Shown here in pieces: positions 41,817-43,321 of a DNA stretch of 64,000 nt. Position numbers and translations under genes: made by a program. The notes under the pieces are model-generated. The model did not search any database and was not told where the DNA came from. It saw nothing but the letters and a program-made list of their open reading frames with translations. Each line of letters begins with the position of its first letter. Position 1 is the first letter of the stretch. The stretch comes from Dictyostelium discoideum (taxonomy: Eukaryota): contig CM000154.2 of the NCBI GenBank assembly GCA_000004695.1, positions 2,272,001 through 2,336,000 on the forward strand. Reading direction: 5' to 3'.

Positions 41817-42440
41817 ATGGAATATAAAAAAAATTCCATTCAATTTTTTACAAATATGGTTATTAATCGTTGGAGTGTATATATTTATTATGGCTTGCTT
41901 AATAATTTTTAAAAAAAAAAATTTTGTAATAAAGACATTATATTCATTGGAGCCGGAAAATGGTAAAATTATTTGAAAATAGATTTAATTGAAAAAAAAA
42001 AAAAAAATACAGGAGACTAAAAATAATCTAATAACTCACTTATAAAAAAAAAAATAAAAAATAAAAAATAAAAATTAAAAAGTTTCAGATCTTACTGCCC
42101 GAATCCTTTTCTTATGTAATATAAAATTTATAAATTCAATTTAATTTTTTTTTTTTTTTTTTTTTTAACACAAATTATTAATATTAATAGATTTAATTAT
42201 TATTATTATTTTTTTTATTTAGGGGTTTTTGGTAATTGGATACTCACCATCTCTAATGCTTTGAATTATGAAAAAAATAGTTTATTCTATTTAACTTGGT
42301 TTTCCTTTGTAGTTGGTCTAACTCATTATGCCTTTGAGTTTTTTTACTATAATACAAACAACTTTAAAAATAATATTTCACAACTATTTTTTGCTGGACC
42401 AGCTGTTTTCTTTATGGCAATTAGAATTTTATATTTATAA
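41817..42440 (+). CDS. Small multi-pass membrane protein, tandem copy 1 (frame-disrupted near the N-terminus as assembled; possible pseudogene or assembly error). Two exons: start unclear..41962, 42223..42440
   Basis: Exon 2 VFGNWILTISNALNYEKNSLFYLTWFSFVVGLTHYAFEFFYYNTNNFKNNISQLFFAGPAVFFMAIRILYL parallels copy 2. Exon 1 frame (..IWLLIVGVYIFIMACLIIFKKKNFVIKTLYSLEPENG, donor GTAAAA at 41963) is offset from ATG 41817 by an A8 run at 41826-41833. An alternative in-frame start is the ATG at MACLIIF. Confidence 0.4.
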
Positions 42441-42832
42441 AATATGTGAAATAATTTTTATATACATAAAATTAATTAAAAAAAAAAAAAAAAAAAAAAT
42501 AATAAAGATGTGCAATTAAAAAGAAAGAAAAAAAAATTCATATACTAAAATCTTACTAATTTAATTATCTTTTAATTTAAATTATTTTTTTCAAATGGTT
42601 TTGCTTATTAATAGTTTTAGTTTAAATTTTTTTTTCCTTTTACCAGATAGTCTTTTTTTTTTGTTTTTAAAATTATTTAAAAAAAAAAAAAAATAAAATT
42701 AAATAAAGATTGTATATTTTTTTTTAATTAATAAAAAAGAAAATTTTCAATTTAATTAATATTTAGATTTTTAAATAATAAATTTTAAGTAAATAAAATT
42801 TTTAATAAAAAAAAAAATATAGTTTTAAGAAA

Positions 42833-42956
42833 ATGGAAACATTTGCAATTTGGTTATTAATGGTTGGATTATATAGAGTTTTTATGAGTTTTTTGATTTT
42901 GATACAAACTGATGTTCTAAAAAAAGTTATCTACCCTTTAAAACCAATTGAAGGTA

Positions 42957-43004
<48 letters not shown>

Positions 43005-43321
43005 TTATAGTTTATTTTGCCAAAATTTTTTTTTTTATAATTAATTAAAATAACTTTTTTTTTTATATAGTTTCACCACTATTTTGCAGAATGGCTTTTA
43101 TGTGGGTAATTTCAAATGCAATTTTAACTATTACCACTTCACTAAATATGGATAATAAACCGTTATATTTCATAACATGGTTAACTTTTGTGATTGGTTT
43201 ATCACATTTTATGTTAGAGCAATTTTATTTCAAAACAAATACATTAAAAAGTAATTTATCACAATTATTTTTTGCAACTCCTTGTTTGGTTATTATGGGA
43301 ATAAAATTATTGAATTGGTAA
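42833..43321 (+). CDS. Small multi-pass membrane protein, tandem copy 2 (about 123 aa). Two exons: 42833..42953, 43071..43321
   Basis: METFAIWLLMVGLYRVFMSFLILIQTDVLKKVIYPLKPIE, donor GTAATT at 42954 (phase 1), acceptor tatatag at 43070. VSPLFCRMAFMWVISNAILTITTSLNMDNKPLYFITWLTFVIGLSHFMLEQFYFKTNTLKSNLSQLFFATPCLVIMGIKLLNW. Four predicted TM helices. Confidence 0.55.

Follow-up and report, generated by a model that had tools for sequence, protein, structure and literature searches.

A tandem Erg28 paralog of Dictyostelium with a frame break near its start codon, probably a recently disabled gene

Erg28 is a non-catalytic protein that serves as an ER anchor and scaffold for the enzymes of sterol C-4 demethylation in yeast, plants and mammals (PMC9730225, PMC2817430). 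Its partners, known from yeast, plant and human work, are Erg25/26/27 or SC4MOL and NSDHL (PMC9730225, PMC2817430). The protein is non-essential in yeast, where its loss leads to the accumulation of C4-methyl sterols (PMC9730225, PMC2817430). Here we describe two tandem genes of Dictyostelium discoideum, called copy 1 and copy 2, whose products resemble yeast Erg28p, human ERG28 (C14orf1) and Arabidopsis ERG28 in length (~120-140 aa) and in having four hydrophobic helices. Their sequences share ~26-33% identity with Erg28 proteins of dictyostelids outside group 4 and 27-29% with those of fungi. By analogy with the family literature, the Dictyostelium copies may act as scaffolds as well. A sequence search of the PDB revealed no solved Erg28 relative, and our literature searches returned nothing on DDB_G0289065, DDB_G0289063 or "Dictyostelium dimigraforme". 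What is new here is an unannotated and apparently disabled member of this known family. Such a loss would be ordinary biology that should not surprise a specialist, and it opens no long-standing question.

The two genes lie in the window, by which we mean the whole 64,000-nucleotide stretch of D. discoideum DNA that was analysed; it is ~22% G+C and rich in long A/T runs.

41817-42440, + strand: copy 1, Erg28 (PF03694) homolog with its frame broken near the start
42833-43321, + strand: copy 2, DDB_G0289065, intact and annotated

The first-pass annotation described a tandem pair of genes for small four-helix membrane proteins. This description holds, as the two products are collinear and homologous over their full length (BLASTP E=6e-29, 40% identity) and each displays four hydrophobic segments in hydropathy profiles. 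For copy 2, an AlphaFold2 model places helices at residues 2-23, 43-65, 70-94 and 99-122 (mean pLDDT 76, pTM 0.70), the four-transmembrane-helix layout of the Erg28 family. A DUF or TM2-like family had been suggested for the pair; the profile search assigns both products to Erg28 (PF03694) instead. To count as a member, a protein had to exceed the curated gathering threshold of 22.2 bits across most of the model's 111 positions. Copy 2 reaches 91.1 bits over profile positions 2-104, and the three-exon model of copy 1 described below reaches 63.1 bits over positions 1-106. Both genes belong to the Erg28 family by these measures and are predicted to encode small four-helix ER membrane proteins. 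The spliced product of copy 2 matches EAL62911.1, XP_636415.1 and UniProt Q54I19 exactly. It is named "Ergosterol biosynthetic protein 28 homolog" in UniProt and is also entered as "hypothetical protein DDB_G0289065 [D. discoideum AX4]". Copy 2 is an intact gene, annotated in D. discoideum as an Erg28 homolog.

The exon structure of the two genes is as follows.

41817-41962, + strand: copy 1 exon 1
41845-41962, + strand: conserved coding sequence within copy 1 exon 1, FLQIWLLIVGVY...SLEPEN and base 1 of the Val codon that intron 1 divides
41963-42082, + strand: copy 1 intron 1, 120 nt, GTAAAA...AAAAAG, phase 1
42083-42115, + strand: copy 1 mini-exon, 33 nt, (V)SDLTARILFL(W), overlooked in the first-pass annotation
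42116-42222, + strand: copy 1 intron 2, 107 nt, GTAATA...TTTAG, phase 1, missing in copy 2
42223-42440, + strand: copy 1 exon 3, helices 2b-4, stop TAA at 42438-42440
42833-42953, + strand: copy 2 exon 1
42954-43070, + strand: copy 2 intron, 117 nt, phase 1, with an (ATT)n run
43071-43321, + strand: copy 2 exon 2, stop TAA at 43319-43321

Copy 1 has three exons, not two. Both genes had been given the same two-exon structure, which leaves copy 1 with a supposed 260-nt intron, but this interval contains a second intron and the 33-nt mini-exon at 42083-42115. The two-exon model of copy 1 was rejected, since it shows an 11-residue gap within helix 2 when aligned with the 123-aa product of copy 2 and scores only 36.7 bits against PF03694. 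Inclusion of the mini-exon closes the gap and raises the score to 63.1 bits. The mini-exon peptide (V)SDLTARILFL(W), which forms the first half of helix 2, has (V)SPLFCRMAFM(W) as its aligned counterpart in copy 2. Its borders read AG|TTTCAG...TTAT|GTAATA, with AAAAAG| on the 5' side. Among four genomes it stands out as a conserved island amid unalignable intron DNA, and the differences within it are mostly synonymous third-position changes. Three further genomes also carry the mini-exon sequence and its splice sites, and the annotated D. citrinum protein (P0001) includes it. Intron 1 of copy 1 matches the single intron of copy 2 in position and phase. The earlier placement of this intron after an E-x-G motif was partly right: it is phase 1 and at a homologous position in both genes, but the residue at the junction is Val (G|TT) rather than Gly.

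The three-exon model gives an open reading frame of 124-125 aa with GT/AG splice sites in all six related genomes examined, namely two of D. citrinum, one of D. dimigraforme, two of D. cf. discoideum and one other D. discoideum. The copy 1 orthologs P0001 (D. citrinum), P0002 (D. dimigraforme) and P0003 (D. cf. discoideum) share 82-85% amino acid identity with window copy 1 across the 122 residues that they have in common. The public models of these orthologs disagree: P0001 has the correct mini-exon, P0002 uses a later donor and P0003 skips the mini-exon. Two genomes with an intact copy 1 have no annotated model at all, and a second D. discoideum assembly (L004, discussed below) carries a fused 338-aa model. 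The practical gain lies chiefly in annotation: D. discoideum now has a correct gene model, with three exons, for an Erg28 paralog that had not been annotated and whose public ortholog models are inconsistent, missing or fused to a neighbouring gene.

With the mini-exon included, copy 1 and copy 2 are collinear over their full length (42-47% identity). Each is the closest relative of the other, at 45-50% identity, and both share ~30% identity with Erg28 of Polysphondylium violaceum and Heterostelium. D. citrinum, D. dimigraforme and D. cf. discoideum show the same tandem arrangement; there, as in the window, a SNARE-like gene is followed by copy 1, copy 2 and then a PP4R3/SMEK gene on the opposite strand. 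At least four Erg28 paralogs are present in D. citrinum (copy 1, copy 2, P0014 and P0013), all of which pass the PF03694 threshold. P0014, the third member, lies ~2.4 kb beyond the PP4R3 gene, and P0013, the fourth, lies elsewhere. An ortholog of P0014 was sought in the window and is absent from it, the syntenic interval being occupied by a tRNA gene and a retrotransposon. The Erg28 family is thus expanded in group-4 Dictyostelium, and the redundancy among its paralogs makes the loss of one of them plausible.

Copy 1 differs from copy 2 in its extra intron, in its slower evolution in the sister species and in a start-proximal frameshift found in the window's lineage. The elements around its start are listed here; the start region of the window was aligned with seven assemblies (the second D. 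discoideum assembly and the six related genomes).

41817-41819, + strand: ancestral copy 1 start codon, the ATG of MEFLQIW... in the relatives, now out of frame (8-genome alignment)
41817-41912, + strand: 31-codon ORF opened by this ATG, MEYKKNSIQFFTNMVINRWSVYIYYGLLNNF followed by a stop, overlapping the in-frame ATG at 41890
41823-41844, + strand: 22-bp insertion TATAAAAAAAATTCCATTCAAT, from the alignment with the six related genomes
41826-41833, + strand: A8 homopolymer within the insertion; with A7 the insertion would be 21 bp and in frame

The six related genomes begin ATGGAATTTTTACAA (MEFLQIW), with ATGGAGGTTTTACAA in one D. citrinum strain. Their start region reads AAAG or AGAG, then ATGGA(A/G)(T/G)TTTTACAA, also given as ATGGAATTTTTACAAATATGG, so that copy 1 of the sister species begins MEFLQ(I/L)W right at the ATG. 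In the window the insertion sits between ATGGAA and TTTTTACAA, its placement being ambiguous by ~1 base owing to a T run. It is found in none of the six related genomes, all of which have an intact ortholog, and is present in both the window and the second D. discoideum assembly. Because its length of 22 bp does not divide by three, it shifts the ancestral start codon out of its frame. Codons of the conserved frame, in which the conserved part of exon 1 is read, begin at 41818 (+1 from the ATG), one base off the register set by the ATG at 41817. This agrees with the first-pass annotation, which had noted that the ATG is out of frame and that deletion of one A from the A8 run joins it to the conserved frame; both points were confirmed. 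The cause of the frame break is the insertion, not a miscounted A run. In the conserved frame a TAA stop lies upstream at 41812-41814 and no ATG occurs before 41890-41892, which is Met24 of the frame-repaired model proposed earlier. With this stop upstream and no in-frame ATG before Met24, normal full-length translation would be lost.

Several ways of bypassing the insertion were considered and rejected. An intron excising it finds no GT between 41817 and 41857. An upstream coding exon could be spliced to the AG at 41815-41816, but the relatives use the local ATG as their start. Upstream of it a single island (~41590-41705) is conserved, and indels of 4 and 5 nt that distinguish close relatives mark it as non-coding. 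No source copy of the inserted 22-mer occurs elsewhere in the window, where it is unique. A 7-nt inverted repeat, ATGGAAT/ATTCCAT, runs across the start codon and the insertion, but repeats of this kind are frequent in DNA as AT-rich as this, and we propose no mechanism from it.

Copy 1 is strongly constrained outside the window's lineage. Among the four relatives tested, omega ranges from 0.03 to 0.06 with 91-95% amino acid identity, as compared with an omega of 0.16-0.30 and 74-78% identity for copy 2 in the same comparison. Changes along individual branches were counted by parsimony, with L006 as outgroup. On the terminal branch leading to the window, copy 1 has accumulated 13 nonsynonymous and 5 synonymous changes (omega ~0.67), a ratio statistically compatible with neutral evolution (p=0.40). 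On the sister branch (L005) it has 4 nonsynonymous and 6 synonymous changes (omega 0.17), which departs from neutrality (p=0.007). Copy 2 shows 4 nonsynonymous and 9 synonymous changes on the same window branch (Fisher p=0.033 versus copy 1). These counts are small (18 events), and the p-values lie near 0.03-0.04. The replacements R15I, T64N, N70K, F95Y and K96N in window copy 1 affect sites that are invariant in both paralogs in all other genomes. Replacements on the window branch are spread along the whole protein and are not confined to the part before Met24. Without the insertion, window copy 1 scores 63.3 bits against PF03694, the lowest of any copy 1, versus 72-81 for the intact orthologs. 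Compared with D. citrinum copy 1, it is 3-5 points less identical to each outgroup Erg28. Together these observations are moderate evidence that constraint has relaxed on the window's copy 1 branch, as would be expected of a unitary pseudogene, although on small counts.

We consider it probable that copy 1 is a recently disabled Erg28 paralog; it would be a unitary pseudogene of recent origin or, at a minimum, a null-like allele. The loss of its function and of protein expression is predicted from sequence. Copy 1 would ancestrally have been a three-exon paralog, intact and strongly constrained as it still appears in the sister species. In the NC4-derived D. discoideum lineage to which the window belongs, it would have gained a real 22-bp insertion right after codon 2. 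This insertion would have put its only usable start codon out of frame, so that this ATG leads only into a dead-end ORF of 31 codons. The full-length protein would no longer be made normally, and the gene would since have drifted almost neutrally. Several features sit less easily with a pseudogene. Copy 1 is otherwise open and its splice sites are intact, and the A8 run minus one base would give an in-frame 7-codon insertion, a suspicious near-miss. In addition, both assemblies that agree on the lesion come from NC4-derived strains, and the evidence for relaxation consists of few substitutions (18) counted by parsimony, with p ~0.03-0.04.

It is unlikely, although the most probable of the alternatives, that copy 1 functions as an N-terminally truncated three-helix protein starting at the ATG at 41890 (MACLIIF...), a start that had been offered before as a possible explanation of the frame break. 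This Met is read in the conserved frame, the ORF beyond it stays open with its splice sites preserved, and the 107-aa product retains a PF03694 score of 55.6 bits; an omega of 0.67, being below 1, also leaves room for residual constraint. However, such a protein would lose helix 1 (WLL.VG.YR), which covers Pfam profile positions 1-19 and ranks with the most conserved segments of the two paralogs, and replacements are frequent downstream of Met24 too. Moreover, the ATG at 41890 lies behind two out-of-frame ATGs, at 41817 and 41856, whose ORF ends at 41912, past 41890. The ATG at 41817 has a favourable context, A at -3 with G at +4, and under the scanning model 41890 should be reachable only by leaky scanning. 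The loss of helix 1, the two upstream ATGs and the protein-wide changes all disfavour the downstream start.

The first-pass annotation had suggested a homopolymer-length error in the assembly as one of two explanations. The true sequence would then be A7, and copy 1 would encode a protein of 131 aa, MEYKKIPFNFLQIWLL..., in which an N-terminal insertion of 7 residues would do no harm. With one A less there is indeed a complete ORF that scores 63.1 bits against PF03694, above the threshold, and the rest of copy 1 is free of stops with intact splice sites. We nevertheless regard this as very unlikely. The second D. discoideum assembly (L004; GCA_054883475.1, contig CM142511.1, 5.29 Mb) is identical to the window across 41780-41900, A8 included. 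Within 6.5 kb the two disagree at 39844, 39870 and 41472-41475, three places in low-complexity sequence between genes, which identifies L004 as a separate assembly. It thus preserves A8 while differing at nearby homopolymer-rich sites. De novo Nanopore and Illumina assemblies including AX2-214, with an N50 of 5.3 Mb, were described by Holland et al., PNAS 2025 (PMC12745789), and L004, which is of that assembly batch, is probably strain AX2-214. The lesion is therefore reproduced in a second assembly, both being of lab-type D. discoideum. AX2 and AX4 both derive from NC4, and this shared origin means that the agreement shows the allele to be real in that lineage, not fixed in the species. The presence of A8 in both assemblies and the relaxed constraint are not what a homopolymer artefact would produce, nor is a 22-bp insertion relative to six genomes, and an excess of replacements at otherwise invariant residues would be unexpected for a functional gene. 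An N gap had also been cited as a sign of poor assembly. This 100-N gap (50082-50181) separates the two ORFs of a non-LTR retrotransposon (RVT_1, 127 bits), and the first of these ORFs starts ~280 nt downstream of a tRNA-Asn gene. As the gap falls within a repeat, it has no bearing on homopolymer accuracy. The frame break in reference-type strains is a genuine allele, and its "repair" is unwarranted.

Restoration of the frame during expression, by polymerase slippage, by +1 ribosomal slippage on A8 or by a near-cognate ATA/ATT start in the conserved frame, appears just as improbable. The break falls exactly in a homopolymer, where one base lost in the RNA or a +1 shift would give the conserved frame. 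On the other hand, the A8 run belongs to a young insertion, and neither it nor the frame offset is found in any of the six related genomes, so it is not a conserved recoding site. Eight A's would generally be short for efficient slippage, and the relaxed constraint speaks against a maintained product. Most doubtful of all is the specific proposal that A8 acts as a recoding site, with an A lost in the mRNA or a +1 shift on AAA-AAA-AA yielding a full-length paralog with the extension MEYKKIPFNFLQIW...; were it true, the laboratory lineage would express copy 1 at a low, slippage-limited level. A translated copy 1 product, truncated or recoded, would be marked by the peptides TLYSLEPENVSDLTAR or ILFLWVFGNWILTISNALNYEK. 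In a collection of 15 billion proteins, we found no exact D. discoideum match to copy 1 (five models and ORF fragments), and control fragments of copy 2 were likewise absent, so that the missing match bears neither on transcripts nor on other strains.

The probable disabling of copy 1 in the window's lineage can be compared with its fate in D. firmibasis, where the annotation shows no copy 1 in the interval from the SNARE-like gene to copy 2. At this syntenic site a remnant of exon 3 of copy 1 was detected (L008 ~2993-3151; tblastn E=7e-6), indicating that the tandem duplication predates the split of firmibasis and discoideum and that copy 1 was lost at least once before. Copy 1 is under tight constraint in wild relatives, probably disabled in the NC4-derived lineage and independently decayed in D. 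firmibasis. These lineages may serve as natural knock-outs for the role of extra Erg28 scaffolds in sterol C-4 demethylation. The D. firmibasis remnant is far more decayed than window copy 1: it contains in-frame stops as well as 1- and 2-nt deletions, and its exon 1 is undetectable. It seems to represent the end state of a process that has apparently just begun in the window's lineage.

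The Erg28 pair is flanked upstream by a gene for a SNARE-like protein and downstream by a PP4R3/SMEK-family gene, the latter identified through the Pfam labels of its D. firmibasis ortholog, and this flanking order is kept in all of the related genomes. The SNARE-like gene is in turn preceded by a tandem pair of short-chain dehydrogenase (adh_short) paralogs; the related loci compared cover only the one that adjoins it.

Features of the window around the Erg28 pair
37537-38046 and 38932-39522, + strand: two adh_short paralogs in tandem
40279-41391, + strand: SNARE-like protein gene, with a C-terminal membrane anchor
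42957-43003: long (ATT)n microsatellite, within the copy 2 intron
43722-47680, - strand: PP4R3/SMEK-family gene
47680-53190: interval with a tRNA-Asn gene and a non-LTR retrotransposon
49010-49084: tRNA-Asn gene
49360-50253 and 50219-52270: ORFs in the retrotransposon interval
50082-50181: N gap, the only one of the window, inside the retrotransposon

In D. firmibasis, the stretch that separates copy 2 from the SNARE-like gene retains exon 3 of copy 1 only as a decayed remnant (positions 2993-3151 of its locus, L008), which carries stop codons and deletions of 1 and 2 nt. The same paralog, copy 1, has been lost independently in this species.

In the window (41817-41839), the 7-nt arms of an inverted repeat, ATGGAAT ... 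ATTCCAT, are separated by a 9-nt spacer and pair the region of the copy 1 start codon with part of the 22-bp insertion. This might hint that the insertion arose by fold-back or template switch, although such inverted repeats are common in the AT-rich DNA here. Further upstream, a relatively G+C-rich non-coding island (about 41590-41705) is conserved across the discoideum-clade genomes; in the lineage of the window it carries additional deletions of 5 and 4 nt. Such an island could act in the promoter or 5'UTR and be decaying as well.

Public annotation of copy 1 is uneven. In the second D. discoideum assembly (L004 451-2608, corresponding to window 40279-42440), the SNARE-like gene and copy 1 are joined into a single model whose 338-aa product has an Erg28 Pfam match; this fusion is probably an annotation artefact due to the broken start of copy 1. 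Copy 1 is intact yet lacks any annotation in two discoideum-clade assemblies (L005 2584-3180 and L006 2442-3030). Among the annotated orthologs, the D. dimigraforme model (P0002) ends the mini-exon at an incorrect donor; that of one D. cf. discoideum (P0003) omits the mini-exon.

Beyond the PP4R3/SMEK-family gene, the non-LTR retrotransposon (RVT_1, 127 bits) lies a short way downstream of the tRNA-Asn gene. The syntenic interval of D. citrinum (L009 3650-6640) is occupied instead by two genes, one for a 122-aa product and the other a third Erg28-like gene, whose product (P0014) scores 60.9 bits; a search for its counterpart across the whole window found none. Within the pair itself, the copy 2 intron, which harbors the (ATT)n microsatellite in the window, varies widely in length among the relatives, from 61 to 212 nt.
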